Translations under genes and position numbers: made by a program
In this document: piece after piece, positions 12,541 to 51,584 of the stretch
How positions within the stretch are numbered: position 1 is the stretch's first letter
How the letters are laid out: each line of letters opens with the position of its first letter
The notes under the pieces: generated by a model
What the model was told of the DNA's origin: nothing
The model's input: the letters and a program-made list of their open reading frames with translations, nothing else
The model's database searches: none
Assembly (NCBI GenBank): GCA_041891055.1
Contig: CP169074.1
Location: forward strand, 1,728,001-1,792,000
Source of the DNA: Halorutilales archaeon Cl-col2-1
GTDB lineage: Archaea > Halobacteriota > Halobacteria > Halobacteriales > Afararchaeaceae
Direction of reading: 5' to 3'
DNA: 64,000 nucleotides

Positions 12541-12563
12541 GGTAGAGATACGAGGTAACAGAA

Positions 12564-12875: not shown

Positions 12876-12929
12876 TTCGACCAGGCTCAGGTTTAGGCTT
12901 ATAAGCCTACGTTATCTACTCTATTTCGA

Positions 12930-14054: not shown

Positions 14055-14121
14055 GACGGTCATCTTAGAACATGGTTTTTGACAACATTTATCTGTGGCT
14101 CAAGCCCTCTTTTCGACTGAC

Positions 14122-15672: not shown

Positions 15673-15743
15673 TATTAATAATTTCCGGTTTTTTCGGGGT
15701 GTTACATCGCAAGAGATATATGTGTAATAGACAATCGTGAAAT

Positions 15744-16532
15744 ATGATGTTAGATAATAAGGTTGCAATAGTCACGGGAGGCAGCCAAGGTCTCGGAAAG
15801 GAGATCTCTTTCCAGTTTGCCGAGGAAGGTGCCGACGTGGTTCTAGCCGCGCGTAGCGAGGACAAGATACAGGAGAATGCCGACGAGATAAACGGGAGCG
15901 ACGAGTACGAGGGGAATGCGATGGCAGTTCCGACCGACATATCCGACGAAAGCGAAGTCGAGGATCTAGTCGACGCGGCTGTCGACGAGTACGGTACTGT
16001 CGATATTCTCGTCAACAACGCCGCGATAGGCGGACCCTCGAAGTACATAGAGAACCTCGAATCCGAGAAGTGGAGACAGATTCTCGATATCAATCTGACG
16101 GGCTCCTACTACTGCACGAAACACGTCGTCCCTATACTCAAGGAGAAGGAGGACGGACGTATCATAAACATCTCCTCAACCGGAGGAAAGAAGCCTTACC
16201 CGCTTCGCTGTGCGTACGCCACGACAAAGACGGGAATAATAGGCTTCGGACGTTCGATAGCCGACGAGCTCGGTCAGTGGGGGATCAACGTCAACACCGT
16301 CTGCCCGGGTCCGATCAAGTCGCCGCGTATCGACCGCATGATAGAGAACCGCGCCGAGGAGCGTGATATCTCGTTCGAGAAGGCTAAGAAGGCATACACT
16401 AAGGGATCGATGTTCAGGAGATTCGTCACCAATGAGGAGGTCGCTAACATGGTCACCTTCCTCGCTTCCGAGAAGGGCAAGGGAGTCACGGGACAGGACA
16501 TTAACGTCTCAGTCGGAATGTACTCCGACTAA
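15744..16532 (+). CDS. SDR family NAD(P)-dependent oxidoreductase
   Basis: Motifs TGGSQGLG, NNAA and YATTK. AT-rich upstream region. Confidence 0.9.
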   Translation: MMLDNKVAIVTGGSQGLGKEISFQFAEEGADVVLAARSEDKIQENADEINGSDEYEGNAMAVPTDISDESEVEDLVDAAVDEYGTVDILVNNAAIGGPSKYIENLESEKWRQILDINLTGSYYCTKHVVPILKEKEDGRIINISSTGGKKPYPLRCAYATTKTGIIGFGRSIADELGQWGINVNTVCPGPIKSPRIDRMIENRAEERDISFEKAKKAYTKGSMFRRFVTNEEVANMVTFLASEKGKGVTGQDINVSVGMYSD

Positions 16533-16611
16533 GTCGATCTTACGTTCTCGTTCCGGTTCTTTCTTTCTCACGTACCGATACACAGAAGCCGTCTTAGACA
16601 TAGCTTAGTCT

Positions 16612-17835
16612 GTGAACACCTCTGAGGATACTGTCGGAAACGGATATGCCTACTTAGTCCTCGGTCTCGCCGTACTTGCCAACTTCAGCCAGTTCGGAGC
16701 GAGAGTAGTCGTAAGTCCTCTCGTTCCCGACATCATCGCTGACTTCGGAGTCACAAAGTCGGAGGTCGGCTTAGTCCTCACCGGAATCTGGGGGGTCTAC
16801 GCTCTACTACAGTTCCCGAGCGGAATCCTCGCCGACAGGTTCGGCGAAAAGAGGGTGATAGCCACGTCGCTCGTCCTCGTAACCGTAGGAAGCGTAGCCC
16901 TACACATCTCGTCGACTTTCGTCACGTTCGCAGTCTTCGCTCTCTTCCTCGGTGCTGGTGCGGGACTCTACTTCTCGGTGGGGACGTCCCTCCTCACGAA
17001 GATATTCGGTGCATCGGAACGCGGGCAGGCACTCGGTATACATTCGACGGGGGGACCTCTTGCGGGAGTCGTGGCTCCGCCTGTCGGAGCGTACGTTGCG
17101 GCGCGGTACGGCTGGAGGACGGCACTCCTCTTTGGAGGCGTCGTAGCCCTCCCCGTCTTAGTCGGCTTCGTCTACACCGTGCGCCCTGTGTCTAACCCCA
17201 ACTCTGACTCTGTCTCCGAGACTGAGACTCAGAGTATCGAAGCCTCGCCGAGCCTCCTCGAACGTGTCAAGAGCCTTGCGACACGTCCGAGACTCGTCTA
17301 CACGACGTTACTCGGCGTCTCTCTGTCGTTCGCGTGGCAGTCTTTCTCGTCGTTCTTCCCTACCTTCGTCGTCGAGGAGATGGGAGCCACAAAACAGACG
17401 GCTAGCCTCTACTTCGGAGCCGTCTTTCTCCTGACTGCCGTCTTCCTTCCCGTGATGGGAAGACTATCTGACTCGCTCGGACGTGACAGACTTCTCGGCT
17501 TCTCGTTCGTGAGTATGTCTACGGGTATTCTCCTATTCATCGTCGGCGAGGGTACTGTCACGGTCTATGCCGGGATTCTCGTCTTAGGCGTGGGGATGAG
17601 CTGGGGAGGCGTTTTACAGTCGCGCGCTATGGACATCATCTCTGACTCTGAGAGAGGCACGGGTTTCGGTCTCGTGCGTACAGTCTACATGCTGATCGGA
17701 GCCACCGGAAGTGCCGTCACGGGAACCGTAGCCGAGTTCGCGGGATGGGGGGTATCTTGGGGAATAGTCGTGGGTCTGCTTCTCGTCGCTCTACTTAGTC
17801 TCGGGGTCAACAGAACTCTCAGGCTGGGTCTTTAG
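16612..17835 (+). CDS. MFS transporter
   Basis: About 12 TM segments, motif A GILADRFGEKR and GRLSDSLGRDR. Confidence 0.9.
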   Translation: MNTSEDTVGNGYAYLVLGLAVLANFSQFGARVVVSPLVPDIIADFGVTKSEVGLVLTGIWGVYALLQFPSGILADRFGEKRVIATSLVLVTVGSVALHISSTFVTFAVFALFLGAGAGLYFSVGTSLLTKIFGASERGQALGIHSTGGPLAGVVAPPVGAYVAARYGWRTALLFGGVVALPVLVGFVYTVRPVSNPNSDSVSETETQSIEASPSLLERVKSLATRPRLVYTTLLGVSLSFAWQSFSSFFPTFVVEEMGATKQTASLYFGAVFLLTAVFLPVMGRLSDSLGRDRLLGFSFVSMSTGILLFIVGEGTVTVYAGILVLGVGMSWGGVLQSRAMDIISDSERGTGFGLVRTVYMLIGATGSAVTGTVAEFAGWGVSWGIVVGLLLVALLSLGVNRTLRLGL

Positions 17836-38347: not shown

Positions 38348-39646
38348 ATGGAGACCAACCTAACGATAACAGCCGAGATACTAAATCACTCTCAAGTAGA
38401 GAGTGATTTAGACAGGCATGGTTGGTCTGCCTCGAAACTATGGAATATTGCCAGATACTACACTAGAGAAGTCTGGGAAAAGACAGGAGAGATCCCTGAG
38501 GAAGATACGTTGAAGACCGAGTTGAAAGAACACGAAAGATACGAGGACTTACACAGTCAGTCCAGTCAGAAAGTTCTAGAAGAGCTTTCTGAGGCGTACC
38601 AGTCTTGGTACGGCTCCGACGACGACAGGGATAATCCTCCTGGCTACCGCAAACGTTGGTACTACGACGGCTCAGGTAATCTAGTCCACGAAGAACATCC
38701 TAGGAGTACGGTCACATGGAAGAATCGTGGCATAAGACACGATTCTGACAATAACAGAGTACGTCTCTCTAAAGGCAAGAATCACAAACAAGTAGAAGAA
38801 CGTAGCGACTTCATCCTCATAGAGTACGACTTACACAGACCATACAACGAGATAGACGGAAGTATACAGCAGGTTCGTGCTGTATACGACGAAAAGGAAG
38901 AAAAGTGGGAGTTACACCTAGTCGTACAGAAAGAGATAGAAGTAGAAGACTCAGGAGAAGAGACTGTAGGGATCGATCTAGGTATCAGTAACTTCGCTGC
39001 GCTCTCGTTCGAGAACGGCGATACCGTTCTTTACCCCGGCAACGAACTCAGCCAGAACAACTACTACTTCGAGAAAGAGAAGGCTAAACTCGATAAGTCG
39101 GACGGTAGAGAACGTACTCGTCTAGATCATCTACAGTCAGAGAGACGTAGACACTTCCTCCATTCGTTGTCTAAGCATATCGTAGAGGAGTGTAAGAAGA
39201 GAGACGTTGGAAAGATCGCCGTAGGCGATCTTGAGGACATTCGTCAGGACGACGATGGAGAAGCCAGAAACTGGAGAGACTCAGGTAATTTAAACCTGCA
39301 CAAGTGGGCGTTCGACCGCTTTACCGGGATGCTAGAGTACAAGGCGAGGCTGAGTGGTATTGAGCTAGAGAGGATAGACGAAGAGAACACGTCGAAGACG
39401 TGTTGTGTCTGTGGTAAGCTCGATGGTGACCAGAGAGTCGAACGTGGTCTGTACGTCTGTGATGACTGTGATACGGTAGCTAACTCAGACGTTAACGGAG
39501 CTGAAAACATAAGACAGAAGTCTGAAGGTAACTCCGAGTCTTCTTGCTTTGATCAAGAAGATAGGAGTATCGGTTGTTTGGCACAACCTGGAGTCTACCT
39601 GTATGATCGGTCTTGCGGATTCGAACCGCAAGAAGCCGTTGGGTAG
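38348..39646 (+). CDS. tnpB: RNA-guided endonuclease TnpB
   Basis: RuvC-I GIDLG, zinc finger TSKTCCVCG...YVCDDC and RuvC-III DVNGAENI. Confidence 0.92.
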   Translation: METNLTITAEILNHSQVESDLDRHGWSASKLWNIARYYTREVWEKTGEIPEEDTLKTELKEHERYEDLHSQSSQKVLEELSEAYQSWYGSDDDRDNPPGYRKRWYYDGSGNLVHEEHPRSTVTWKNRGIRHDSDNNRVRLSKGKNHKQVEERSDFILIEYDLHRPYNEIDGSIQQVRAVYDEKEEKWELHLVVQKEIEVEDSGEETVGIDLGISNFAALSFENGDTVLYPGNELSQNNYYFEKEKAKLDKSDGRERTRLDHLQSERRRHFLHSLSKHIVEECKKRDVGKIAVGDLEDIRQDDDGEARNWRDSGNLNLHKWAFDRFTGMLEYKARLSGIELERIDEENTSKTCCVCGKLDGDQRVERGLYVCDDCDTVANSDVNGAENIRQKSEGNSESSCFDQEDRSIGCLAQPGVYLYDRSCGFEPQEAVG

Positions 39647-39683
39647 GCTTCAAACCTTAATATCCCAACTGGGATTCACCCCG

Positions 39684-39781
39684 TTCGTGAATCTTTGATT
39701 CACGAGCATGCTGAGGGAACCTCAGCATACGTCTCCAGATCTTTGATCTGGATGGCTAACGAATTCGAAGAATTCGTACCG
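39684..39781. repeat. Two tandem double-hairpin elements (48 + 50 bp) in the IS right end / omegaRNA region
   Basis: Four hairpins: CGTGAATC-TTT-GATTCACG, ATGCTGAG-GGAAC-CTCAGCAT, CCAGATC-TTT-GATCTGG and ACGAATTC-GAA-GAATTCGT. They split the terminal stem TCACC...CGCC/GGCGGGTGA. Confidence 0.8.
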
Positions 39782-39801
39782 CCTTCAGGCGGGTGAGGAT
39801 G

Positions 39802-41232
39802 TCAAGATATAAGAGATATGACTCTAACTCCGTCCTTAGATAGTAGACTGCTTATCTTAGAAGATGCTTTTACTACTCTGTCCGCGGACTCTTCAGCGAA
39901 TACGTCAGGATCACATGACTCTATCAGAGATGGTAGTTTTTCGACGCCGGTTACTCTCTGACCTCCCGTGAGGTTCGAGACTCCGTCGTTGAGTATCACA
40001 ACGAGGATGTCCTCATCTCTCTCAGACGCCTCCAAGAGACCCTGTATACCCGAGTGAATGAATGCGGTGTCTCCGACGAAAGCTACGGCATCCTCGGGAT
40101 GTCCGGACGCGAGGCTTATCGCAGATCCGAGCGCCGAAGCACCGTCGGCGAACTCGAACGGAGGACGTCCCGTGAGTGCTACCGAGCCTATGTCGACCGC
40201 GACGAAGACGTCCAGAAGATCATCGACGACACCCTTGTAGATCTCGTAGAAAGGATTCGACTCAGGTAGGGGACGTCCGCTTTTCTCTATATCTGGGCTG
40301 ACGGGTGAGGGGTCGGTGAAAGCAGTCTCGATACCTCTCTCCACGGCTTCCTCGGTCAGTCTTCCGTACCGCGGCAGGTGTCCAGTCTCCTTACCCACCA
40401 CGTTTTGGGTGTCGAGGAAATTTTCTATCAGAGGATCACCGTCTTCCACTACGAGGACTCTGTCGTGTCTCCCGACGAAACGTTCCGCCTCGGACGGTAC
40501 TGGATACGAGTATCCGAGCGAGAGATGTGAGACGTCGTCGGGAACCACCTCCGAGGCGTCGCCACACGACAGTACGCCGAGGTCAGTACCCCCGTCTCTC
40601 AGACTGTGTAGATCCGAACTGTCGACGTACCTCCGTATCTCGGGACGTATCTCTTCCTCGAAGACCTTTCTGCGTCTGACTACGGGACCTTTCCACGCCC
40701 TCTGTCTGTCGAACTCGCCCGTTTCTTCTATTCTGTCGAATCTCAGTCTCTCGACTGCAGTCTCAGATTCGAGAAGACGCGAGGTCACGCGTACTATACA
40801 CGGCACACCTACGTCTTCTGAGAGTCTCAGACCCTCCTCGACTGACTCGAGTAATCCGTCTACTCCTGAGGGAGTCAGAACCGGAACCCGCGCCTTGAAA
40901 CCTAACGAGCGTGAGTCTCCCTCGTCCTGTGACTTGACAGCTCCGGGATCGTCGCCCGCGATGACTAAGACACCGCCGCCCGTCCCGAAGGTGGCTGAGC
41001 TCGCGAGGGGGTCGAGTGCGACGTTGACACCCACGTGTTTGGCTATGAGACAGCCCCTCTCGCCAGCGAACGACCTTCCTATGGCTTTCTCTACCCCCAC
41101 CATCTCGTTTGGAACCACGTCGGAATCGGTCTCCTCGACCAGATCCGTGACAGGATATCCCACGACTCCCGCCGTGTATACGTCGTTTTTCTTGAGACAA
41201 CGCGCGACCGCTTCAGCGCCGCTTATCCTCAT
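39802..41232 (-). CDS. IorA-like ThDP-dependent enzyme lacking Fe-S cysteines (putative 2-oxoacid decarboxylase)
   Basis: IorA N-terminal motifs (GYP, NEMVGVE, KHVGVNVALDPL, GDDPG..SQ.E.DSR) and ThDP motif GDTAFIHSG...ILND. No ferredoxin domain. Confidence 0.8.
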   Translation of the reverse strand: MRISGAEAVARCLKKNDVYTAGVVGYPVTDLVEETDSDVVPNEMVGVEKAIGRSFAGERGCLIAKHVGVNVALDPLASSATFGTGGGVLVIAGDDPGAVKSQDEGDSRSLGFKARVPVLTPSGVDGLLESVEEGLRLSEDVGVPCIVRVTSRLLESETAVERLRFDRIEETGEFDRQRAWKGPVVRRRKVFEEEIRPEIRRYVDSSDLHSLRDGGTDLGVLSCGDASEVVPDDVSHLSLGYSYPVPSEAERFVGRHDRVLVVEDGDPLIENFLDTQNVVGKETGHLPRYGRLTEEAVERGIETAFTDPSPVSPDIEKSGRPLPESNPFYEIYKGVVDDLLDVFVAVDIGSVALTGRPPFEFADGASALGSAISLASGHPEDAVAFVGDTAFIHSGIQGLLEASERDEDILVVILNDGVSNLTGGQRVTGVEKLPSLIESCDPDVFAEESADRVVKASSKISSLLSKDGVRVISLIS

Positions 41233-42191
41233 ATGTACGGACTGTCCTTCGTGAGTTCGTCTATCACTGCTTCGACTACTTCCTCAGTCGATGACTCTCC
41301 TCCTAAGTCGGGCGTCGGCGCGCGTCTGACCCCCTCATAGGTTGCTTCTTCGAGCCTCCTACTCCTCTTCTCGAAGCCGAGGTAATCGAGCATCATAGAT
41401 GCGCTCAGAAGACAGCCCGCGGGATTGGCTACTCCTTCGCCGGCTATGTCGGGGGCACTCCCGTGGACGGGCTCGAACATCCCGAAGTCGTCGCCTATGT
41501 TCGCGCTCGGTGCTACTCCTAACCCGTCTCCGAGTCCGGCTGTGAGGTCGCTGAGTATGTCTCCGTACAGATTCGGCGTGAGTAAGACGTCGAACTCCTC
41601 ACCATCTGCGAGGTCGTGGGCTACGGAGTCGACGAGCCTTTCGTCGTACTCGACGTACGAATCCTCGATGACTTCTCTGCTCACGTCTCTGAAGAGACGG
41701 TCCGAACCCACGACGTTGGCTTTGTGGACTACGGTGACTTCTGACTCCGCCTCTTCGACGGCTTTTACCGCCGTCTTCCGTGTCGCCTCCGTTGTCACTG
41801 AACGGACTGTCTCACACGCGCCTTCCTTTGATATCTCCTCCCCTGAGTAAAGACCCTCAGTGTTTTCCCTGACTACTGTCCCAGTCCGCGAGGGGCGTAC
41901 GTTGGCATAGAGTCCTAGCTCGTTTCTCAGACGGAGGACGGTGCTCTCGTACTTCGGGTCGTCGGGACTCTCGACGGCTCCGAGAAGAAGGGCATCACAG
42001 TCACGTATACGTTCGAGCGTCTCCTCGGTCACGCCTGTGTCGACCTCCTCTGACTCCCAGACAGACCTCCCGACATCGAGGCTCACGGTCTCGATACCCA
42101 CGTCGAGACATCTCAGAGACTCGACCGTAGCAGGCACGACCTCTCTGCCTACTCCGTCTCCCTCAGCCACTCCTAAAGTGATATCAGCCAT
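41229..42191 (-). CDS. aksF: Isocitrate/isopropylmalate dehydrogenase family, AksF-like homoisocitrate dehydrogenase
   Basis: Motifs GDGVGREV, RENTEGLY, HKANV, NLYGDILSD and EPVHGSAPDIAG. Specificity inferred from context. Confidence 0.75.
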   Translation of the reverse strand: MADITLGVAEGDGVGREVVPATVESLRCLDVGIETVSLDVGRSVWESEEVDTGVTEETLERIRDCDALLLGAVESPDDPKYESTVLRLRNELGLYANVRPSRTGTVVRENTEGLYSGEEISKEGACETVRSVTTEATRKTAVKAVEEAESEVTVVHKANVVGSDRLFRDVSREVIEDSYVEYDERLVDSVAHDLADGEEFDVLLTPNLYGDILSDLTAGLGDGLGVAPSANIGDDFGMFEPVHGSAPDIAGEGVANPAGCLLSASMMLDYLGFEKRSRRLEEATYEGVRRAPTPDLGGESSTEEVVEAVIDELTKDSPYI

Positions 42192-42669
42192 TCTTTCTCC
42201 TCCAGCTTAGCAAGCCACCCGCTTCGAGAACCTCACGAAGCCTCTCGGGAAGCTCCTCACACTCGTGCCTCGTCTTCCCGGGCTCCGACTCCACTACCAC
42301 GGTGCCTTCTGACAGATCCAGTGAGACGCGGTCACCGTCGTCGGTGTCTTCGGCGACAGATGCTGTTGCTATCGGGAGACCAACGTTGATCGCGTTTCGG
42401 TAGAATATACGTGCGAACGACTCGGCGACTACCCCTCTGATCCCGGCTGCCTTTATCGCCCTCGGTGCCTGTTCACGTGACGATCCGTACCCGAAGTTCT
42501 CACCCGCTACTATAACGACTCCCTCGCTGTCGTCCGCAAACCGGGGATCTACGCCCTCCATTACGTGGTCAGCCCACACGTCCTCGTCACGCCGGAGGTA
42601 CTTTCCGGGTATTATCTCGTCGGTGCTGATGTCGTCTCCGAATGTCCTCGCTTCTCCTTTGACCCTCAT
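42184..42669 (-). CDS. aksE: Homoaconitase small subunit (LeuD/AksE family)
   Basis: Motifs FGDDISTDEIIPGKYLR, GENFGYGSSRE and SFARIFYRN. The YLR loop is homoaconitase-like. Start at ATG 42669. Confidence 0.8.
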   Translation of the reverse strand: MRVKGEARTFGDDISTDEIIPGKYLRRDEDVWADHVMEGVDPRFADDSEGVVIVAGENFGYGSSREQAPRAIKAAGIRGVVAESFARIFYRNAINVGLPIATASVAEDTDDGDRVSLDLSEGTVVVESEPGKTRHECEELPERLREVLEAGGLLSWRRKNG

Positions 42670-43913
42670 ACTACCTCCGCTGGGTTGGTTATCTCCCCTT
42701 CTACTGCACTCGCAGCGACGGTCTCGGGCGACCCGAGATACACGTCTCCCGATCCCATTCTCCCGTCGAAGTTCCTGTTGCCCGACGAGATACAGACCTC
42801 CCCGTCTCCGACGACTCCCTGGTGGTATCCCATACACGGACCACATCCGGGGTTGAGTATAGTCGCGCCGGCTTCCATAAGCACGTTCGAGATGCCCTCC
42901 TCGTTGGCTCTCATCAGGGCTTCCTTCGTGGCGGGAACTAATATCAGACGCGTCTCGGGTGCTACCTCGCTGCCTTCGAGGATTTCAGCCGCGGCGGCTA
43001 GGTCGGAGAAGCCCCCGTTCGTACAAGTTCCTATATGTGCCTGATCCACAGCCGTACCTTCGACTTCGTCGACTGGAACGGCGTCCTCGGGAGCACCCGG
43101 ACGTGCTACGAGGGGTGACTCGGGAGCCTGTATACGTATCTCCTCGTCCCAAGACCCCGGGTCGGAGTAGACGGGGTTCGCGTCCTCCTTTCCGGTGTAC
43201 TCGAAGGTAGTCTCATCGGGTGGTATCACCGCCGACTTCGCGTCCATTTCGACACCCATGTTACACAGGGTTATCCTCTCCTCTACGCTGAGATCCTCTA
43301 TACAGTCGCCGTGGTACTCTATCACGCTGTAGTTAGCACCGCTCGCCCCCAGCTCCGAGACGATCTTGAGAGTCAGATCCTTGGGTGTAATACGGCTCCG
43401 GCTCGGGTCGAATTCCTCAATCTCTACCTTAATTGTCTCTGGGACACGGAACCACAGCTTTCCCGAGATGAGTGCCTCGGCGATATCAGTGCTTCCCACA
43501 CCCGTCGAGAATGCTCCGAGTGCACCGAAGCTACACGTGTGTGAGTCGCCCCCGACTACAATATCTCCGGGGTTTATGTAGTCTTTCTCGGGAAGTACCC
43601 TGTGACATATCCCCTCACCCTCGTGTCTGTCGATGCCATTCTCGGTGGTCCAGTCCCTTATCTCAGACTGCTGTTCGGCGACGTCCTCGTCGGGTGCCGG
43701 GAAGTAGTGGTCGAAGGGAACAACCACCTTGTCGGAGTCCCACGGCTCTTCATCCATCTCCTTCATAGCCTCGACGGCTAGGACGCTCGAACCGTCGTGA
43801 GCCATCACGAGGTCGAGATCAGCCTCAACAACGTCTCCTGCTCGCGCTTCCTCACCCGACGCGTCCGAGAGCACCTTCTCCGCCATCGTCGTAGGCTCTG
43901 TCGCCCGCGTCAT
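42666..43913 (-). CDS. aksD: Homoaconitase large subunit (LeuC/AksD family)
   Basis: Motifs GDSHTC, IGTCTNG, PGCGPCMG and NRNFDGRMG. Confidence 0.8.
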   Translation of the reverse strand: MTRATEPTTMAEKVLSDASGEEARAGDVVEADLDLVMAHDGSSVLAVEAMKEMDEEPWDSDKVVVPFDHYFPAPDEDVAEQQSEIRDWTTENGIDRHEGEGICHRVLPEKDYINPGDIVVGGDSHTCSFGALGAFSTGVGSTDIAEALISGKLWFRVPETIKVEIEEFDPSRSRITPKDLTLKIVSELGASGANYSVIEYHGDCIEDLSVEERITLCNMGVEMDAKSAVIPPDETTFEYTGKEDANPVYSDPGSWDEEIRIQAPESPLVARPGAPEDAVPVDEVEGTAVDQAHIGTCTNGGFSDLAAAAEILEGSEVAPETRLILVPATKEALMRANEEGISNVLMEAGATILNPGCGPCMGYHQGVVGDGEVCISSGNRNFDGRMGSGDVYLGSPETVAASAVEGEITNPAEVV

Positions 43914-45052
43914 CTTCCTCTCACCTCCTCGACCAGCTCGGATATGCTGACTGTGTCTCTTCCCGACTTGAGACTCTCGACTACCTCCTCAATCTCGTCC
44001 TCGATCTCTATACCCTCTCTCTCGGCGATGAACTCTACTGCCTTTCTACCTGAATGTTTCCCGATCTCGAACTCCCTCTCTCGTCCGACTTTCTCGGGAG
44101 GGTATACCTCGTAAGTCCCGGGATCGTTGGCTATCCCCTCGACGTGGACACCGCTCTCGTATCTGAAGGCGTTTTTCCCGACTACCGGCTTCGTAGGGCT
44201 GACCTCTATTCCCGATCTCTCTTCGACGACTTCCGAGAGACGGCTCAGTTTCTCAGTCTCTACCACCTCGAACGAGTACTGTGTCGAGAGGACGACTGCG
44301 ACCTCTTCTAGGGGAGTGTTGCCCGCGTTCTCACCTATGCCGTTCACAGTCGTGTGTAGCTGTACTGCGCCCTCCTCGGCTGCGGCAACTGTGTTCGCGA
44401 CTGAAAGACCCAGGTCGTCGTGGCAGTGTACCGAGACGGGTACCTCGACCCAGTCTCTGACCTTAGTCACCATCGTTCGTGTCGTCGGTGGGGTTAGAGC
44501 ACCCACAGTGTCGGCTATACCTACCATGTCGGCTCCTCTCTCCTCGGCACCCGTGTAGAGACGTCTGAGGAAGCCGGGGTCGGATCGTGTAGAGTCCTCG
44601 ATGGCGAAACGCACCTCTATCCCATGATCAGACGCGTACTCGACCGTCCTGAACGCCTTCTCAGCCGCCTCTTGCCTCGTTATACCGTACTTCTGACTCA
44701 GATGGCGGTCGCTCCCGGCTATGAATACACCTACTGCGTCGGCTCCCGTCTCGATTACGGAGTCTATGTCGTCTTCCATACACCGCGCGAGACACGAGAT
44801 CTTAGCGTCTGTTCCGAGACTCACGACCTCCTCGACGGCTCTTCTCTCGTCGTCGCTTACAGCCGGAAATCCCGCCTCTATGTATCCTACTCCTGCTTCG
44901 TCAAGCAGACGCGCTATCTCCTTCTTGTCCTCGACCGAGAACGAGACTCCGGGTGTCTGTTCTCCGTCTCTTAACGTGACATCGTATATATGAAGATCAT
45001 CAGTTAGTTGGGGTCTGTCGACGAAGTTCGAGAAGCTGTTGGCTTGGGTCAT
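43910..45052 (-). CDS. aksA: Homocitrate synthase family (AksA-like), no C-terminal regulatory domain
   Basis: Motifs DVTLRDGEQTPG, HCHDDLG, NGIGE.AGN and GKHSG. About 380 aa. Start at ATG 45052. Confidence 0.8.
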   Translation of the reverse strand: MTQANSFSNFVDRPQLTDDLHIYDVTLRDGEQTPGVSFSVEDKKEIARLLDEAGVGYIEAGFPAVSDDERRAVEEVVSLGTDAKISCLARCMEDDIDSVIETGADAVGVFIAGSDRHLSQKYGITRQEAAEKAFRTVEYASDHGIEVRFAIEDSTRSDPGFLRRLYTGAEERGADMVGIADTVGALTPPTTRTMVTKVRDWVEVPVSVHCHDDLGLSVANTVAAAEEGAVQLHTTVNGIGENAGNTPLEEVAVVLSTQYSFEVVETEKLSRLSEVVEERSGIEVSPTKPVVGKNAFRYESGVHVEGIANDPGTYEVYPPEKVGREREFEIGKHSGRKAVEFIAEREGIEIEDEIEEVVESLKSGRDTVSISELVEEVRGR

Positions 45053-45071
45053 TGTGGTTGTCGTGTTTACT

Positions 45072-45752
45072 TTACTCTCCGAATACCTCTGTCGTGAGGC
45101 TCTTTCTGACGGATTTGGCGGCTTCCTCGGGTGTGACTCTCTCCTCTGAGACACCGATATCAGGTATCTTTCCGACGACGTCAATGCCTGTCATCATCTC
45201 AATTTCGTCGGGGTTTGTCCTCTCGGCTGTGTCGGGATTCTCAGGATATCTGTTGATAACTATTCCCGAGACATCGAGGCTTCTTCTCTCGACTGCCTCG
45301 ACGGTGAGCGCTGTGTGGTTGAGGGTTCCGAGGCTCGGGCGCGTGACAATGAGAACGGGGACTCCGAGGTCTTCTATCAGGTCTATTACCTCCTTACCGT
45401 CGTCGAGAGGCACTCTCACACCTCCGATACCCTCTACGACGGTGAAGCCGTCCTCGGATAACCTCGATACGACGTGTTCGAGTACACTGTCGTAGCCCAG
45501 GTCACACCCCTCTATCTCCGCCGCGACTCTCGGAGCCAAGGGCTCTTCGAGTACCGACGCGCAGACTTCGTCTACGGGGTCGCCTGACGCCGCACTAAGA
45601 AACTCGGCGTCGTCACTCCCGCCTGACTCGACGGGCTTTACTGCGTTCACGTCGAATCCCTTGTCTTTCAGGTATCTTACTATTCCTCCCGCGACTACTG
45701 TCTTACCCACTCCTGTGTCGGTTCCGGCTACGAATATCCCGTTCGTGTTCAT
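45072..45752 (-). CDS. bioD: Dethiobiotin synthase
   Basis: Motifs GTDTGVGKT, KPVESG, VEGIGG and LGTLNHT. Confidence 0.93.
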   Translation of the reverse strand: MNTNGIFVAGTDTGVGKTVVAGGIVRYLKDKGFDVNAVKPVESGGSDDAEFLSAASGDPVDEVCASVLEEPLAPRVAAEIEGCDLGYDSVLEHVVSRLSEDGFTVVEGIGGVRVPLDDGKEVIDLIEDLGVPVLIVTRPSLGTLNHTALTVEAVERRSLDVSGIVINRYPENPDTAERTNPDEIEMMTGIDVVGKIPDIGVSEERVTPEEAAKSVRKSLTTEVFGE

Positions 45753-46960
45753 ATCACTCCCACCTCTTTGCCTGCCTCCTCGAACGCGTCCACGACTTTT
45801 CGGATTTCGTCATCTGTATGGGTCGCCATCGCGCTCACACGTATCCTACTCGTACCTTCGGGGACTGTCGGAGGACGTACTGCGGGAGCGAAGATGCCTC
45901 TCTCCTCGAGCTTATCCCCTAGACTTACTGCGTCTTCGGCGTCGCCTACGAGAACCGGGATTATCTGTGACTCACGGCTGAGTATCTCATATCCGAGGTC
46001 GCTCAGACTCTCTCTCAAGAACTCGACGTTCGACCATAGATCTTCTCTCAGATTCTCTCCCTCACCACTCCTTACGAGATTTACTGCCTCGCGTGAGACC
46101 TCGGCGTCTATCGGGCTCAGACCCGTGCTGAAGACGAACGACCTCGCCTCGTTCACGAGGAGGTCGATAAGCTCTGAGGATCCAGCGACAAAGCCGCCCT
46201 GGCTTCCGAGGGCTTTGCTCATCGTACCCATCTGAATATCTATGTCGTCCACAAGCCCCTCGCGTCTGACTACTCCAGAACCTTCCTCGCCTACTACACC
46301 TGTGGCATGCGCCTCGTCGACCATTACGAAGCCACCGTCGTCGCGCGCTATCTCCGATATTTCCTTGAGGGGAGCTATGTCGCCGTCCATCGAGAATACC
46401 GAGTCGGTCACAATCAGCTTACGTCTTCCGTCGTGTTTCTTCCATTTTTCACGGAGGTCGTCGGGATCGCAATGGTCGTACACAACGGTTTTGGCGTCTG
46501 AGAGGCGGCATCCGTCTATTATGCTCGCGTGGTTGAGTTCGTCGCTGAATATAACGTCCCTCTCGTCTGCAGATCCCTGATCTCCAGGCTCGGAAATCAA
46601 AGATTTCCGAACGTCGGTGACTGCGGTGATCGTTCCGACGTTCGCGGCATATCCCGACGAAAAAACCAGAGCGTCTTGTGTTCTCTTGTACTCGGCAATC
46701 TCGTCCTCGAGACGCCGGTGTGGCTCCAGATTGCCCGATAGTAGACGCGACGCTCCTGCCCCAGTGCCGTACTTATCGCTCGCTCTGCACGCCGCCTCCT
46801 TCAGACGTCTATGGCTTCCGAGCCCGAGGTACGAGTTGGAGGAGAGAACCAAGGTTCTGTCATCCTCGCCGTCGACCGTCGCTGTCTTTCCAAAGCCGCC
46901 GAGTTCCCTCATCGACCTGTAGAGTCCCCGGCGTTTCCTGACCTCAACCTCCTCGAACAT
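45749..46960 (-). CDS. bioF: 8-amino-7-oxononanoate synthase
   Basis: Motifs SNSYLGL, SDELNHASIIDG, SVFSMDGD, DEAH and PLP lysine TMSKALG. Carries a 16-aa insert. Confidence 0.93.
   Translation of the reverse strand: MFEEVEVRKRRGLYRSMRELGGFGKTATVDGEDDRTLVLSSNSYLGLGSHRRLKEAACRASDKYGTGAGASRLLSGNLEPHRRLEDEIAEYKRTQDALVFSSGYAANVGTITAVTDVRKSLISEPGDQGSADERDVIFSDELNHASIIDGCRLSDAKTVVYDHCDPDDLREKWKKHDGRRKLIVTDSVFSMDGDIAPLKEISEIARDDGGFVMVDEAHATGVVGEEGSGVVRREGLVDDIDIQMGTMSKALGSQGGFVAGSSELIDLLVNEARSFVFSTGLSPIDAEVSREAVNLVRSGEGENLREDLWSNVEFLRESLSDLGYEILSRESQIIPVLVGDAEDAVSLGDKLEERGIFAPAVRPPTVPEGTSRIRVSAMATHTDDEIRKVVDAFEEAGKEVGVI
46564..46611 (-). repeat. 48-bp double-hairpin element inserted in frame in bioF
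   Basis: Minus strand TTCGGAAATC-TTT-GATTTCCG-AGC-CTGGAGATC-AGG-GATCTGCAG-ACG with GACG duplicated. 35/48 identical to the metG copy. Confidence 0.85.
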
Positions 46961-46963
46961 CTA

Positions 46964-47962
46964 CTAGAATCCGGGCATTATCTCGCTCGGATCGAAGAGG
47001 CCGTAGAGTCCGTTTTGGTTGAGGAAGACCCCTTTCTTGAGGTATCCGAGCGCGGGACCGTTGACGTTCGCTGCCATGCTCGTGTTGTCGTCTAGCTTGA
47101 ATGTGTTGGTGCCCTCGTCGCCCTCGAAGGTCGTACCCGTCACACGTACGGTCGTCGTCGTGGGTTTCTCGTCCTGTGTGACGTCGAGTATTCCTCCTAC
47201 CTTGACGTCGGCGGAGTCACATATTCCCGCCTTTTCGAGGAGTACCTCGTCGGCGTGTTCCATGTCCTCGAACTCAAGACGTCCGTCGTGTTCCTCTATT
47301 ATCTCCTCTATCTCGTCGTCGGACATCTCGGAGACCTTTTCGAGGTCGTACTCCGGGAGATGTGCGATGTCCTCTCTCACGGTTCCCTTGTTCTCCTCGT
47401 ATCCGCTCGCTATGCCTACTCCCCACCATATCTCTATCTCGTCGACCTCTACGAAGCTCTGTGAAGCGATTGCGGCGGCTCCCGTGAGGAAGCCGGGCGT
47501 CGCACCTGCGCCACAGATGAAGGTAATTCCCGATGCCTCTATCTTCGACTCCATATCTTCGAGCATGCCGATCACACGCGACCTCTTGAGGACGTCAATC
47601 ATGACTCCCGAGTAGCCCGCGTCTGCGAATCTGTCGACGGTATCGGGTATGAACGAATGGGGGATGTTGGGAAGAGCCATCAGGACGGCGTCTATACGGT
47701 CGCTGACCTCGATGACCTCCTGTATCGAGTCGTTCGCGGGAGTCCCACCGGGAGCCTTCGCGACTGTTCCTCCGTCGGCTTCGACCGCATCGACGATGTC
47801 GTCGACTTCGAGACCGTCGAAGTCTATTGCCACACCTTCTTTGTCACACACCGCGACCGGATTGAGGTCGTCCTTGTACTCCGAGACTTCGAGTGTTCGT
47901 TTGCCTATTCCACCTGTACCAAGTACGGCTATGTTCTTTGTATCTGCGTCTGTTTCAGACAT
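46964..47962 (-). CDS. bioU: BioU (NAD(P)H-dependent suicide enzyme replacing BioA)
   Basis: Rossmann motif VLGTGGIG, MALPNIP, DVLKR (conserved Lys), GAGATPGFLTG and DMEHAD. Located in a bio operon with no bioA. Confidence 0.85.
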   Translation of the reverse strand: MSETDADTKNIAVLGTGGIGKRTLEVSEYKDDLNPVAVCDKEGVAIDFDGLEVDDIVDAVEADGGTVAKAPGGTPANDSIQEVIEVSDRIDAVLMALPNIPHSFIPDTVDRFADAGYSGVMIDVLKRSRVIGMLEDMESKIEASGITFICGAGATPGFLTGAAAIASQSFVEVDEIEIWWGVGIASGYEENKGTVREDIAHLPEYDLEKVSEMSDDEIEEIIEEHDGRLEFEDMEHADEVLLEKAGICDSADVKVGGILDVTQDEKPTTTTVRVTGTTFEGDEGTNTFKLDDNTSMAANVNGPALGYLKKGVFLNQNGLYGLFDPSEIMPGF

Positions 47963-48725
47963 ATTTATCGAGTTCTTTGGGTTTTATACTGTAGAAATCC
48001 GACACTCCGTCAACCAGAAACGGCGTAGTCTCAAGACTGTCTATATAGCTGTTCAGATCCGTGTCGGGAGAGACGAAGTAGACGCGTCCTCCCGAAGAGC
48101 CGTCAGGCTTCATCCTCGGAAAACGGAAGTAAGTCGCGTCCACAGCTACGTATCCGGGCTTATAGCCGGGGTTGTCCGACCAGCAGATTTCCCCGACTGT
48201 TCCCTCGACCCACTGTGTCTTCGTAGACAGAACGACTGCGTCCTTGACACGTGTTCCGCCGAGACCCGCGTCGTGTATACACTCTTCGAGTCCCTCCTCG
48301 CCTTCATCTGTCGTGCCGACGTAAGAGGTTCTCACTCCTCGACTCTCGTCGGGTTCGAGCCTCTCGCCAGTCTCGGAGTCGACGACTGCAGCACCTCTCA
48401 TCGCCGTCTCGGAGCGGAGTATCTCGAACCCTCTTTCGGTAGCCTCCTTAGAGATGTGTTCCTGAAGTATACTCCTCGCTGTCGCGTGACTCTCTTTGAG
48501 GCTCGATGTCTCGACCGTGACGACATCGACTGTGTCGCTTCTCTCGGGCTTTTGTTCGATCTCTTCTATTGAGATCTCTACGGAGTCGGGCGTCTCTCTC
48601 GGGTGGTTCATCGCTCTCGCCGTCATAGACGAGACTGTGTCGTCTATCTCGTCGTCGACGACTATGTCCTCCGCGCCCGAGACGTGTTCGTCGTTCAGAG
48701 AAGCCCTCATCCGTACGCTGTACAT
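47955..48725 (-). CDS. bioW: 6-carboxyhexanoate (pimelate)--CoA ligase
   Basis: Motifs MYSVRMRAS, HVSGAE, RAMNHPR, MRGAA, RGVRTS, WSDNPGY..GYVA and GGRVYF. Confidence 0.92.
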   Translation of the reverse strand: MYSVRMRASLNDEHVSGAEDIVVDDEIDDTVSSMTARAMNHPRETPDSVEISIEEIEQKPERSDTVDVVTVETSSLKESHATARSILQEHISKEATERGFEILRSETAMRGAAVVDSETGERLEPDESRGVRTSYVGTTDEGEEGLEECIHDAGLGGTRVKDAVVLSTKTQWVEGTVGEICWSDNPGYKPGYVAVDATYFRFPRMKPDGSSGGRVYFVSPDTDLNSYIDSLETTPFLVDGVSDFYSIKPKELDKYV

Positions 48726-48728
48726 ACT

Positions 48729-49727
48729 CTATTCGAGGTCTTCGACGCGTCTTCCCGCGTTCTGGATCATCTCTATGTCTTCCTGAGCGTTCTGTCCCTC
48801 AGTCGTGAGGTAGTCGCCTATTAGGAGACCGTTGGCTCCCGATTCGAGTATCTCGGGCTGTCTGTCCTTGAGGTTCTCCTCGCGCCCTCCGGTGATCCGT
48901 ATCACCTTCTCGGGCATCATGAACCGGTAGATGGAGACCGACCGGAGTATCTCGTCGACGGTGATCTTCGAGTACGACTCGAACGGCGTTCCGGGTACGG
49001 GATTGAGTATGTTGACAGGTATCGAGTCGACATCGAGCCTCCTAAGCTCGGAAGCCGCCTCTATCCTGTGCTCCATCTCCTCACCCATTCCGAATATCAC
49101 TCCGACACACGTCTTGAGACCGACCTCCTGTGCGATCTGAATAGTCCTGACCCTGTCGTCGTAGTCGTGTGTGGATATGACCTCGTCGAAGTACGACGGC
49201 GCGGTCTCTATGTTGTGGTTGTAATGCTGAAGACCCGCCTCTGCGAGATCCTCCGCCTCCTCGCGCGTGAGAACTCCGAGGGAGCCGTCGGGTTCTACGT
49301 CTGTCTCGTCCCTGATGAGACGTATCGACTCTAAGACCTTCTCGAACTCGTCGGGGCGTTTCTGCTTGTCGATTCCGCGCTCGGCGACCACGATACCAAA
49401 CCTGTTCGAGCCGTCTTCCTCTGCCCTCTTCGCGGCTTCGAGTATCTCCTCGGGGTCGAGGTAGTCGTACTCGTCGACGCCCGTGTCGTAATGGTTCGAC
49501 TGGGCACAGAAGCCACAGTCCTCGGCACATCCGCCGCTCTTGGCGTTGATGATAGAGCACGTATCGACGCCGTCGCCCATATTCGACTCACGTATCTCGT
49601 CGGCGGCGTCAACGAGGGGTTCGAGGGGAGCGTCGGCGAGACGGAGAGCCTCTTCCTCCGAGACTCCCTCACCCCTCAGAGCCTTCGTCTTCAGATGACC
49701 TATCTCCTCAGCTAACTCGTTAACCAT
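48729..49727 (-). CDS. bioB: Biotin synthase
   Basis: Radical SAM motif CAEDCGFCAQS, plus YNHNIET and GANGLLIGDYLTT. Confidence 0.95.
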   Translation of the reverse strand: MVNELAEEIGHLKTKALRGEGVSEEEALRLADAPLEPLVDAADEIRESNMGDGVDTCSIINAKSGGCAEDCGFCAQSNHYDTGVDEYDYLDPEEILEAAKRAEEDGSNRFGIVVAERGIDKQKRPDEFEKVLESIRLIRDETDVEPDGSLGVLTREEAEDLAEAGLQHYNHNIETAPSYFDEVISTHDYDDRVRTIQIAQEVGLKTCVGVIFGMGEEMEHRIEAASELRRLDVDSIPVNILNPVPGTPFESYSKITVDEILRSVSIYRFMMPEKVIRITGGREENLKDRQPEILESGANGLLIGDYLTTEGQNAQEDIEMIQNAGRRVEDLE

Positions 49728-49746
49728 GCAGACGAGCTTGGTTGAC
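49719..49746. promoter_or_regulatory. BirA-type operator overlapping the bioB start
   Basis: GTTAAC-N16-GTTGAC, lying between the minus-strand TATA-like box (about 49752-49761) and the bioB ATG, which it overlaps. Confidence 0.65.
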
Positions 49747-49997
49747 GAGATAGTATAATACTTATGGTAGTTGATTATAGTCTCACCCTCTCAGCCGGCT
49801 GTCTGTCTGTGACTTACCTTTTCGTAAGGTTAATTTTACTTCGGCAACTTCTAACAGTTGACACACGCTCCCGCAGCCAGCCCATCCTTCTGATCCGAGT
49901 GTGTGTCACGACACGCCCATGTCACCACGTCCACATCCAGTCTATTTTTGACCGAAACACGAAAGGAGTTAGACACGGAATCCGTACCCAGAGCCGG

Positions 49998-51584
49998 ATG
50001 GACGACTCGTCTGACATAGACACCGGGAGTCTGAGACCGAGAGAGTTAGCCAAGGTCGTTGTTCGTGTGTGGCGTGAGAGAGGACACAGAGCCGCTGTCA
50101 AGACACACGACTCCGACGTATTCGTCGTCACGAGAAGCCGATCCGAGTCATACCCAGACTCCGGGTACGATCGTCTTATCTTGGTCAAGACGTCGGGTAG
50201 CTTCGGTCAAGACGACGCCGAGTACCTACTCAGGACTGCGTCGCGAGCAAATGCGTCTAAGGCTTACGTCGTCCACACCGACACTGTCGAATTACTCGTC
50301 GACACCGACGACATACAGTTCGTTCCCGCGCGGCGTCTGTTGGACGAAGTCGACCCCGACGACGTGACAGATCTCAGCGCGGATGACTCCATACTTATCG
50401 ACAGACGCCGACTCCTCCTCGCAGCAGCCACAGTAGCGGGTCTCGGGATTGGAGTTACTCTCGTACTCAACCTCTTAAACTCCCCGAATGAGGTAAATCC
50501 TGGCTCGACGTCTTCCGGGACAGTCCCATCGGATGATCCGTCGGCGTGGTCACAGTTCCAGCACGACGCCGCGAACACGGGATACATCTCCTACGGTACC
50601 GAGGACAGTCTTACGGATACGTGGAGTTACCCGACCCGGGGCTCCCTCGTCTCGTCGCCCGCAGTCGCCGACGGTAGAGTCTTCTTCGGAAGTAAAGACG
50701 GAAGCCTCTACGCCGTAGACTCCGAGACGTCTGAGACGGCTTGGAGTTACAGTACTCGGGCTGGGATTGCCTCGTCGCCCGCAGCCGTCGGCGATCGAGT
50801 CTATGTCGGGAGCAATGACGGAAGTCTCTACGCAGTCGACGCCGAGTCGGGCGACCGAATCTGGGAACACTCCACGGACGGAGGCGTCGTCTCGTCACCC
50901 GCAGTCGTCGGAGGAACTGTCTTCTTCGGAAGCAGGGACGCGAGTCTCTACGCAGTCGACGCCGAGTCAGGCGACCGTCTCTGGAGCTACGAGACGGGGT
51001 TCGACGTCGTCTCGTCACCCGCAGTCGTCGGAGGAACTGTCTTCTTCGGAAGTAGGGACGCGAGTCTCTATGCAGTCGACGCCGAGTCGGGCGACCGTCT
51101 CTGGAGATACGAGACCGGAGAGCCCGTCAACTCGTCTCCGGCAGCTGTCGACGGCACTGTCTACTTCGGGGGTCTCGACTCGAACCTCTACGCAGTCGAC
51201 GCTGATACGGGCGAGGAGACCTGGAGAAAATCGACAGATGGTCAGATCAGATCCTCGCCGGCTGTCGATGTCGAGGATGACAGGATATACGTCTCTTCTC
51301 TCGACCGACGTCTCTACTGTCTGACCTTGGACGGTGACGAGGTCTGGACCTACGACGCCCGAAGCCAGATGAGACCTTCTCCAGCCGTCACACGTAACAC
51401 CGTCTATGTCGGCGACTCCGACGGTGTGCTACACGCCGTCGACGCCGAGTCGGGGGATCGAGTTACGACACATTCACTTGGCGAAAGGATAATTTCATCT
51501 CCCGCTGTTGTTGAGGGCTCGCTCTATGTCGGGGACGACTCCGGCGAGCTACATTCTCTCGGACTCGTGGAGACTGACGGCTGA
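49998..51584 (+). CDS. Membrane-anchored PQQ-like beta-propeller protein with N-terminal Mrr-like domain
   Basis: TM helix after DRRRLLL and about 8 repeats of SSPAVxxGxVxxGxxDxxLYAVDAxSG. Start trimmed to ATG 49998. Confidence 0.8.
   Translation: MDDSSDIDTGSLRPRELAKVVVRVWRERGHRAAVKTHDSDVFVVTRSRSESYPDSGYDRLILVKTSGSFGQDDAEYLLRTASRANASKAYVVHTDTVELLVDTDDIQFVPARRLLDEVDPDDVTDLSADDSILIDRRRLLLAAATVAGLGIGVTLVLNLLNSPNEVNPGSTSSGTVPSDDPSAWSQFQHDAANTGYISYGTEDSLTDTWSYPTRGSLVSSPAVADGRVFFGSKDGSLYAVDSETSETAWSYSTRAGIASSPAAVGDRVYVGSNDGSLYAVDAESGDRIWEHSTDGGVVSSPAVVGGTVFFGSRDASLYAVDAESGDRLWSYETGFDVVSSPAVVGGTVFFGSRDASLYAVDAESGDRLWRYETGEPVNSSPAAVDGTVYFGGLDSNLYAVDADTGEETWRKSTDGQIRSSPAVDVEDDRIYVSSLDRRLYCLTLDGDEVWTYDARSQMRPSPAVTRNTVYVGDSDGVLHAVDAESGDRVTTHSLGERIISSPAVVEGSLYVGDDSGELHSLGLVETDG
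50826..51105 (+). repeat. 120-bp intragenic tandem repeats encoding propeller blades
   Basis: Near-identical units at about 50886-50986 and 51006-51105. Confidence 0.8.

Follow-up and report, generated by a model that had tools for sequence, protein, structure and literature searches.

We analysed a run of ten co-oriented genes, bioB-bioW-bioU-bioF-bioD-aksA-aksD-aksE-aksF followed by a gene for a thiamine diphosphate (ThDP) enzyme, on the minus strand at positions 39802-49727 of a 64,000-nucleotide stretch of the genome of Halorutilales archaeon Cl-col2-1 (genome G000; the stretch, C1:1728001-1792000, is hereafter the window). We propose that the probable role of this gene set is to form biotin from 2-oxoglutarate and acetyl-CoA, independently of fatty-acid synthesis. 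The gene identities and their order, an operator-like repeat, the family placement of the proteins, the loss of iron-sulfur cluster ligands in the ThDP enzyme and purifying selection were observed directly. The proposal is supported because the ten genes are tightly coupled, the operator-like repeat is conserved, the aks genes are of methanogen type, and mcrA, bioA, BioC and P450 are missing from the genome. A 2-oxoacid-elongation route to pimelate had been put forward in a first-pass annotation of the window; every computational check suggested there came out in its favour, and we present it as a hypothesis.

The pathway would comprise four steps. Enzymes similar to AksA, AksD/E and AksF would carry out three rounds of elongation, from 2-oxoglutarate to 2-oxoadipate, 2-oxopimelate and finally 2-oxosuberate. 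The IorA-like ThDP enzyme, which lacks the cluster, would then remove C1 non-oxidatively to give pimelate semialdehyde (7-oxoheptanoate), and an aldehyde dehydrogenase encoded elsewhere would convert the latter into free pimelate. The candidate for this third step is a gene similar to that of succinate-semialdehyde dehydrogenase (SSADH), at C1:1481675-1483036, chosen as the sole canonical aldehyde dehydrogenase gene of the genome (closest to the NADP-dependent SSADH model, 603 bits for a cut-off of 730). Finally, BioW would produce pimeloyl-CoA, from which BioF, BioU (in place of BioA), BioD and BioB would build the rings.

Gene identities were assigned by Pfam and NCBIfam profile scans (see the table). 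From bioB to the ThDP gene, the successive junctions are a gap of 3 nt, an overlap of 8, a gap of 3, an overlap of 4, a gap of 19 and overlaps of 4, 4, 8 and 4 nt; the gene order and the spacing first described (overlaps of 4-8 nt or gaps of 19 nt at most) were correct in all checkable details. The 19-nt spacer between bioD and aksA is devoid of a promoter. All ten genes are under purifying selection, with ratios of nonsynonymous to synonymous substitution rates (dN/dS) of 0.06-0.39 relative to the sister species of the same genus (G001), at a low divergence (dS 0.06-0.23). As for the ring-forming genes, the BioU-like protein aligns over its full length with Slr0355/BioU (PDB 6ir4; E 2.4e-87, residues 10-332 against 22-341), its LKR motif facing that of Slr0355 with the motif lysine kept; the donor lysine of BioU is K124 according to the accessible part of PMC12704756. 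Profile searches of the whole genome returned neither a bioA nor a BioC over cut-off, and no cytochrome P450, bearing out the lack of bioC and bioI noted at first. No BioZ-type gene is present within the operon; a genome-wide search was made for neither BioH nor BioZ.

Features of the bio-aks gene cluster in the window. The starts of aksA (45052) and aksE (42669) were set at in-frame ATGs where homologues begin; scores are given with model cut-offs where available.
Feature	Length (aa)	Position	Strand	Basis
Candidate BirA operator		49716..49749	.	two 10-nt inverted arms (9/10 complementary), 14-nt spacer, overlaps the bioB ATG
bioB, biotin synthase	332	48729..49727	-	TIGR00433 382.6 bits (cut-off 225); Radical_SAM and BATS
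bioW, pimelate (6-carboxyhexanoate)-CoA ligase	256	47955..48725	-	PF03744 236.7 bits; NF002360 240.6 bits (cut-off 226)
bioU-like, in place of BioA	332	46964..47962	-	NF047886 342 bits, below cut-off (600)
bioF		45749..46960	-	TIGR00858 437.7 bits (cut-off 426.45)
bioD, dethiobiotin synthase	226	45072..45752	-	TIGR00347 138.6 bits (cut-off 83.3)
aksA-like, homocitrate-type synthase	380 (from ATG 45052)	43910..45052	-	HMGL-like and HCS_D2; best PDB match 6ktq
aksD/hacA-like, homoaconitase large subunit	415	42666..43913	-	TIGR01343 hacA_fam 485 bits, over cut-off
aksE/hacB-like, small subunit	161 (from ATG 42669)	42184..42669	-	best PDB match 2pkp
aksF-like, homoisocitrate-type dehydrogenase	320	41229..42191	-	Iso_dh; best equivalog-type model AksF2_Meth
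Short IorA-like ThDP enzyme, proposed 2-oxosuberate decarboxylase	476	39802..41232	-	TPP_enzyme_C; TIGR03336 203 bits (cut-off 650.9)

The inverted repeat at the front of the cluster is consistent with regulation by biotin, and the ten genes probably constitute one BirA-controlled transcription unit. Both arms of the repeat are unchanged in G001, where the spacer shows several substitutions, and an inverted repeat similar in sequence, with perfectly matched 10-nt arms and a spacer of 16 nt, lies ahead of bioB in a haloarchaeon of another genus (G173). The BirA protein of the genome displays the repressor-ligase architecture (HTH_11, BPL_LplA_LipB and BPL_C). The BirA-like operator noticed at first is therefore a real repeat with arms conserved in the sister species, facing a BirA that carries a helix-turn-helix domain, and it stands as a predicted site; we take the repeat to resemble published BirA boxes. 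An AT-rich, TATA-like box (~49751-49758) lies ~26-33 nt upstream of the bioB ATG, a position consistent with a leaderless transcript. A relaxed version of the operator pattern occurs at three sites in the genome, compared with ~0.6 in block shuffles; the two further sites fall within open reading frames (ORFs) and were taken as chance matches. Only 36 nt separate the bioB ATG from that of the divergent gene, so the promoters of the two genes must overlap, unless the true start of the divergent gene lies further downstream. The latter gene (49764-51584, plus strand) encodes a 606-aa PQQ/beta-propeller repeat protein. Elsewhere in the genome, a 30-nt palindrome recurs seven times, six copies being on the 116-kb second contig (C2, between 39222 and 96222) and one at C1:1302960.

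The four aks genes appear to be of the methanogen coenzyme-B type. The AksA-like synthase (PF00682 263.6 bits, PF22617 66.5 bits) has no LeuA_dimer domain in Pfam, confirming the initial remark that the LeuA regulatory domain is missing. When 5.8 billion clusters were searched, its top 120 relatives besides the G001 orthologue (94% identity) showed 47-54% identity to it; wherever a match bears an organism name, that name is of a methanogen genus or lineage, and the label 'methanogen homocitrate synthase' (JGI) is frequent. Note that the public name of the G001 orthologue (P0047), 'homoaconitate hydratase', is that of the neighbouring enzyme and looks like an annotation slip. A quick tree without bootstrap (32 rows) covered the second synthase of the genome under study and, from five archaeal genomes that bear Mcr, all paralogues of the HMGL-like type. 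The AksA-like protein falls in a clade of short (365-395 aa) paralogues that includes copies adjoining ThDP homologues (support of 91 in the Shimodaira-Hasegawa-like approximate likelihood ratio test, SH-aLRT), on a long stem of 0.86; the other synthase of the genome, which is LeuA-like, groups with the ~500-aa LeuA/CimA-type paralogues. The tree is thus in keeping with the original assignment of the synthase to methanogen AksA, apart from the LeuA/CimA paralogues. Among solved structures, the homocitrate synthase 6ktq matches the AksA-like protein with an E-value of 6e-85, versus 1e-60 for isopropylmalate synthase.

The other three aks genes likewise score best with homoaconitase and homoisocitrate dehydrogenase models and structures, as their first labels implied. 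The AksD-like subunit is 46-48% identical to the AksD proteins encoded beside ThDP homologues, versus 31-34% for the two paralogues of its own genome. The AksE-like subunit finds its best structural match in the small subunit of the Methanocaldococcus jannaschii homoaconitase (2pkp, E 2.2e-40), and its YLRR loop aligns with YLRT in that protein, at a place where the isopropylmalate/citramalate isomerase 3vba has YLVY; the alignment confirms the homoaconitase-type YLR loop reported at first, whose Arg presumably recognises the distal carboxylate. The AksF-like protein matches homoisocitrate dehydrogenases at 2e-65, versus 1e-46 for isopropylmalate dehydrogenase. Cut-offs are exceeded for two wider subfamily models, hacA_fam and LEUD_arch.

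These features bear on two other explanations of the aks genes. If they were a second leucine or citramalate (isoleucine) set, with the ThDP protein as an inactive remnant, one could understand why the genome has a single other HMGL-type synthase, versus four to six HMGL-like matches in each of the five Mcr-bearing genomes. However, the loop of the small subunit is of the homoaconitase type, with Arg, and not YLVY, the ThDP gene keeps its ThDP motifs and is constrained (dN/dS 0.18 versus G001), and a leuA-like/leuC/leuD set, together with a second aconitase-like pair and two more Iso_dh genes, does exist elsewhere in the genome (set at C1:141-148 kb), which answers the question raised in the first pass of whether the cell has a separate leu set; we consider this explanation hardly credible. 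The second possibility is that the module stops at 2-oxoadipate, serving alpha-aminoadipate lysine synthesis or providing a C5 unit (glutarate/glutaryl-CoA) as in the BioZ route, a view to which the lysine-pathway homocitrate synthase and homoisocitrate dehydrogenases lend some weight as the best solved relatives of the AksA- and AksF-like proteins. Yet the nearest relatives in sequence are methanogen AksA proteins and not lysine enzymes, the operon lacks a BioZ-type gene, and the alpha-aminoadipate route needs no ThDP enzyme. Moreover, a partial lysA starts at window position 63453, as previously noticed, which implies the diaminopimelate route to lysine. BioW, for its part, is selective for pimelate. 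An arrest at 2-oxoadipate is thus very unlikely, and the presence of lysA and of the separate leu set indicates that the aks module is neither the leucine set of the cell nor required for lysine, in agreement with the earlier view.

The ThDP enzyme is an unusual member of the cluster. TPP_enzyme_C is its only Pfam match and IorA its best NCBIfam model. Its nearest relatives are stand-alone IorA-like proteins of 480-530 aa, 31-41% identical to it, which have no C-terminal ferredoxin domain and keep the motif CxxC...GDxGC...CP(K/R)Y. From what is known of 2-oxoacid:ferredoxin oxidoreductases, we read this motif as the four ligands of a ThDP-proximal [4Fe-4S] cluster. In the window protein, three of the ligand positions are occupied by Pro, Asn and Ser, and the chain ends before the fourth. 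By comparison, the four cysteines are kept in 78 of 82 other homologues (the exceptions are the G001 orthologue, a fragment, a distant sequence and one that aligned badly) and in 93 of 97 further loci, the remaining four of which are cut by contig ends. Residues G387, D388 and N416, which form the GD...N motif of the PP domain, and E43, the Glu of the PYR domain, lie in invariant or near-invariant columns of an alignment of 33 sequences. Pfam detects neither a C-terminal 2x[4Fe-4S] ferredoxin domain nor a flavin domain in the protein, and no IorB-like ORF adjoins its gene, a genome-wide search for IorB not having been made.

An AlphaFold2 model of the protein was obtained with a predicted local distance difference test score (pLDDT) of 83.7 and a predicted template modelling score (pTM) of 0.80; the sole segment of very low confidence, residues 314-319, is situated just upstream of the position of the CxxC motif in the relatives. 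Compared with the PDB by Foldseek, the model displays only a domain-level likeness to ThDP enzymes of the decarboxylase family (TM score ~0.3, root-mean-square deviation ~20 Å), and a profile search of PDB sequences gave weak matches, the best with an E-value of 8e-6.

With no cluster, no ferredoxin domain and no CoA-binding partner, non-oxidative decarboxylation is the simplest remaining chemistry for the ThDP enzyme, and would be the reaction it catalyses. Such a reaction is a side activity of the pyruvate:ferredoxin oxidoreductase of Pyrococcus. The first-pass annotation had left the product of this step as 'pimelate (semialdehyde)'; the loss of the ligands, which it overlooked, argues for the semialdehyde variant, and the latter in turn calls for an aldehyde dehydrogenase that is not encoded in the operon. 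Alternatively, the same route could involve an oxidative decarboxylation, with O2 or some other acceptor, leading to pimelate or pimeloyl-CoA and dispensing with the dehydrogenase. This variant would account for the lack of a dehydrogenase gene in the operon and would fit the descent of the protein from enzymes of the 2-oxoacid:ferredoxin oxidoreductase type. It is at odds with the disappearance of all four proximal [4Fe-4S] ligands and of the ferredoxin domain, with the lack of an adjacent CoA-binding IorB-like gene and of a flavin domain, and, if pimeloyl-CoA were the product, with the presence of BioW, which would be redundant; we regard it as unlikely.

An exhaustive HMMER search of 1.84 billion representatives found nothing between 41% and 99% identity to the ThDP protein. 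The 33 best representatives comprise 18 sequences with all four cysteines, three with some of them and 12 with none. All 12 have Ser at the third position, most are also truncated, and they form one clade (SH-aLRT 97). The members of this cysteine-less clade are 506-554 aa long (P0177, P0180, P0183-P0185, P0189-P0192, P0195, P0197, P0199), and those with a name are aerobic Bacillales, namely Marininema halotolerans, Mechercharimyces and Paenibacillus polymyxa.

The genomic neighbourhoods of the cysteine-bearing relatives connect the family to the aks genes. In 5 of the 16 nearest genome loci, which belong to two groups of related genomes, the ThDP homologue adjoins aksA-aksD (L010, L011, L013, L015, L017), and in three of them aksE and aksF as well; the proteins are 44-55% identical to those of the window. 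A ~280-aa protein is encoded after aksF in such loci (L011:10616-11455, L013:16035-16871, L015:16266-17120), the L013 copy giving a weak match to the XcbA family (78 bits, cut-off 150). Among the 80 metagenome loci listed, the aks-ThDP arrangement occurs once (L102). Eight of the 16 loci have a co-oriented gene of ~300 aa directly upstream, at about 900 nt, of the stand-alone IorA-like gene (L007, L008, L009, L012, L014, L020, L021, L022; labelled Methanoperedens, uncultured archaeon, Methanosarcinaceae, Methanolobus or Methanosarcinales). In both of the two loci scanned, this gene encodes methanogenesis marker protein 11 (TIGR03280, 350-356 bits); marker protein 11 and the stand-alone IorA-like protein may constitute a conserved pair related to coenzyme B synthesis.

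We counted the stand-alone form (at least 480 bits, ORF of ~500 aa) in a sample of 301 genomes of the phylum, one f23 genome being counted from two fragments on separate contigs. It is present in 86 of them: all 37 genomes of family f19, 23 of 24 in f23, all 15 in f26, 7 of 8 in f35, one each in f42 and f45, and G000 and G001. These six other families are all Mcr-bearing. The Mcr-bearing families f20, f25, f27, f28, f29, f31, f33, f36, f37, f38, f40 and f41 have only the canonical IorA of ~600 aa. Such a patchy spread ties the stand-alone family to a subset of coenzyme-B users and not to all of them. Together, spread and neighbourhoods support a function related to 2-oxosuberate and speak against a universal role. 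Note that the TIGR03336 search matched 13 of 14 control genomes and is thus uninformative on M. jannaschii. A bolder idea, which we offer tentatively and with some doubt, is that the stand-alone family is the missing 2-oxosuberate decarboxylase, providing 7-oxoheptanoate for coenzyme B in archaea of the Methanosarcinales type, Methanoperedens and anaerobic methanotrophs of the ANME type, and that an Fe-S-free version of it, combined with AksADEF and BioW in an aerobic haloarchaeon, makes up a further, fifth natural route, which leads to pimelate without recourse to fatty-acid synthesis. A decarboxylase role would explain the position of the stand-alone genes beside aksADEF and directly downstream of marker 11.

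The junction between the bio and aks halves can be compared with that of G001, whose operon proteins are 88-98% identical to those of G000. In G001, bioB-bioW-bioU-bioF-bioD lies at the start of one contig (C27, L098) and aksA-aksD-aksE-aksF-ThDP at the end of another (C50, L099). The flanks at the two contig ends match the bioD-aksA junction of the window base for base, then run into a 13-nt terminal inverted repeat. Traces of a mobile element occupy the last ~75 nt of L099 and the first ~50 nt of L098, with a 5-bp target duplication (window 45069-45073), and a second study (runs X2 and X3) yielded contigs that break at the identical place with identical loose ends. The terminal repeat of the element is absent from G000. 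The matching flanks indicate that the bio and aks genes already adjoined each other in the ancestor of the genus and were not brought together by an assembly error; G000 represents the uninterrupted form.

The distribution of the genes was assessed in 401 Halobacteriales genomes. Close ThDP homologues and aksA orthologues (E <=1e-100) were each found in G000 and G001 only; three other ThDP matches, 32-34% identical, correspond to two cysteine-bearing proteins of the canonical type and one fragment. BioW is encoded in four of the genomes (G000, G001, G173 and G230). In G173, the genes are arranged as bioB-bioU-bioF-bioD-bioW (L096, C3:29000-48900, 11540-16751). A gene for a DASS-type (Na_sulph_symp/CitMHS) transporter is located ~2.3 kb from bioW in that genome and might mean pimelate uptake. 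The first-pass annotation had suggested that ancestral coenzyme B genes might have been repurposed; retention of the module in this genus alone is one possible origin, and horizontal transfer from a relative that bears Mcr is another, two scenarios that the trees do not separate.

Several points weigh against the proposed route. (i) In G001 and in the contigs of the second study, a mobile element splits bioD from aksA within their 19-nt spacer, which shows that the bio and aks halves can come apart. (ii) Two other haloarchaea carry bioW without aks or ThDP genes. (iii) The combination of bio, aks and IorA-like genes, which the first-pass annotation had suggested looking for in other genomes, recurs in the sister species; outside the genus, it was found neither in the 80 genome and 80 metagenome loci listed nor in the 401 Halobacteriales genomes. 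(iv) All four aks genes score below the NCBIfam methanogen equivalog cut-offs, with, for instance, 430.7 bits for HacA_Meth (cut-off 550), 158.2 and 162.1 for HacB_Meth and HacB2_Meth (230), 267.7 for AksF2_Meth (540) and 237.9 for AksF_Meth (500). (v) The lysine-pathway enzymes that are the best solved relatives of AksA and AksF stop at 2-oxoadipate; elongation to C8, rather than to C6 or C7, is a presumed feature of the route. (vi) The ThDP protein sits on a long branch (1.14-1.34) in two quick trees, being placed between the cysteine-less clade and the rest in one, and between the stand-alone family and canonical IorA in the other; no donor or sister group was drawn from them. (vii) The operon has no aldehyde dehydrogenase gene. 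(viii) The enzymatic steps are all deduced from sequence, as are the chain length, regulation and co-transcription.

The first of these points bring up another explanation, adjacency without shared function: the aks and ThDP genes would make some other product derived from a 2-oxoacid, for instance as a coenzyme-B-type relic or a transferred piece, and bioBWUFD would use scavenged pimelate. The aks-ThDP pairing does exist without bio genes in Mcr-bearing archaea, the mobile element of G001 separates the halves, and G173 has bio genes, bioW included, while its genome sample lacks aks and ThDP genes. However, the genes are co-oriented and the 19-nt spacer is too short for a terminator plus a promoter, the arrangement is ancestral in the genus with all genes under purifying selection, and the C7 product of the module is exactly the substrate of BioW. 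In addition, the genome contains no mcrA, so that coenzyme B is not an obvious product of the aks genes, and only a weak TiaS-type match to methanogenesis marker 11. We consider a mere adjacency rather unlikely, and the elongation route to pimelate to be the probable function of the ten genes.

The host genome amounts to 2.06 Mb in four contigs (99.5% complete) and includes an archaeal signal recognition particle RNA. Its family consists in the collection of one genus with two species, G000 and G001, within an order of at least 18 families with genomes of 2-4 Mb; the organism is taken to be a non-methanogenic member of the Halobacteriales with a small genome. The ten operon proteins are very acidic (17-22% D+E). 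A complete classical menaquinone cluster, menF-menD-menB-menA-menC-menE, spans positions 2094-9672 of the window, in accordance with the menaquinone genes recorded at first. At the ThDP end of the operon, positions 38348-39800 hold a TnpB-type gene (432 aa, OrfB_IS605 and Cas12f-like TNB domains) in a low-GC stretch (46.5%). After this gene come five hairpins in succession (166 nt, -74 kcal/mol, z -7.2), an array that stops 2 bases short of the stop codon of the ThDP gene, which is convergent. The gene and the hairpins look like an element of the IS200/IS605 family with a guide or end RNA.

How the operon relates to known systems can now be considered. Labelling work revealed the decarboxylation of 2-oxosuberate in coenzyme B synthesis in the late 1980s, and to our knowledge no gene has been assigned to this step. 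We found no description of a bio operon with aks genes, or of a gene for 2-oxosuberate decarboxylation, in the full-text literature, a corpus that leaves subscription journals largely outside its coverage. The operon would represent a biotin cluster whose early module is new, though assembled from enzyme families already known. In a single transcription unit, amenable to cloning and testing as a whole, it would offer a complete alternative route to pimelate; it would also point to a gene family that may decarboxylate 2-oxosuberate and to a natural enzyme set for C7 diacids from central metabolism, so that two old open questions become directly testable.

A close parallel is the coenzyme B pathway of M. 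jannaschii (AksA, AksD-AksE or HacAB, and AksF), as outlined in the accessible part of PMC3087415, with which the operon shares four enzyme families, the AksA clade, the Arg loop of HacB and the three proposed rounds; elongation to 2-oxosuberate is described as serving biotin as well as coenzyme B (PMC9796705, in part). Unlike that pathway, the aks genes of the window belong to a host without mcrA and are joined to a bio operon with a BirA-type operator; the equivalog cut-offs are missed, the AksA branch measures 0.86, and the end product would be pimelate in place of 7-mercaptoheptanoate. For the stand-alone ~500-aa proteins and IorA (TIGR03336), the likeness to the window enzyme lies in the PYR-middle-PP order, the ThDP motif and 31-41% identity, and, for the former, in the lack of a C-terminal ferredoxin domain and the position beside aks genes; the window enzyme differs by the absence of the four cluster cysteines, a shorter C-terminus, 203 bits against 650.9 and no adjacent IorB.

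Like the BioW-dependent clusters (BioI-BioW of Bacillus subtilis, bioW-F-A-D-B of Methanococcales), the operon would activate free pimelate through BioW before BioF, BioD and BioB act, but its source of pimelate would be enzymes of the operon itself, in place of a P450, and BioU replaces BioA. The available sections of PMC6138646 give Methanococcales as the archaeal group with bioW and count it in none of 31 Halobacteria, compared with 4 of 401 genomes here; they also describe the early steps of biotin synthesis in archaea as unknown, many Halobacteria having bioF, bioD and bioB without bioW. Haloarchaea are likewise cited among the exceptions in the late steps (PMC13336041, in part). The routes to the pimeloyl moiety listed in the accessible part of PMC12704756 are BioC-BioH, BioI-BioW, BioZ and the new BioE, and a 2-oxoacid-elongation route is not named there. 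All four deliver a C7 diacid thioester to BioF, as the operon would. They depend on the synthesis or cleavage of fatty acids, or on lysine catabolism together with malonyl-ACP (acyl carrier protein), whereas the operon would elongate a 2-oxoacid and remove C1 to arrive at C7, a scheme suited to an organism that lacks fatty-acid synthesis of the ACP type. Finally, an engineered Escherichia coli pathway to 6-aminocaproate and adipate, combining NifV with AksD/E/F and KdcA, forms the aldehyde and yields adipic acid as a side product (PMC4666358, in part). By analogy, it shows that a scheme of elongation followed by ThDP-dependent decarboxylation to an omega-oxo acid, as proposed here, should be chemically workable; it differs in being man-made, in using two rounds and not three, and in relying on a decarboxylase of another ThDP family.

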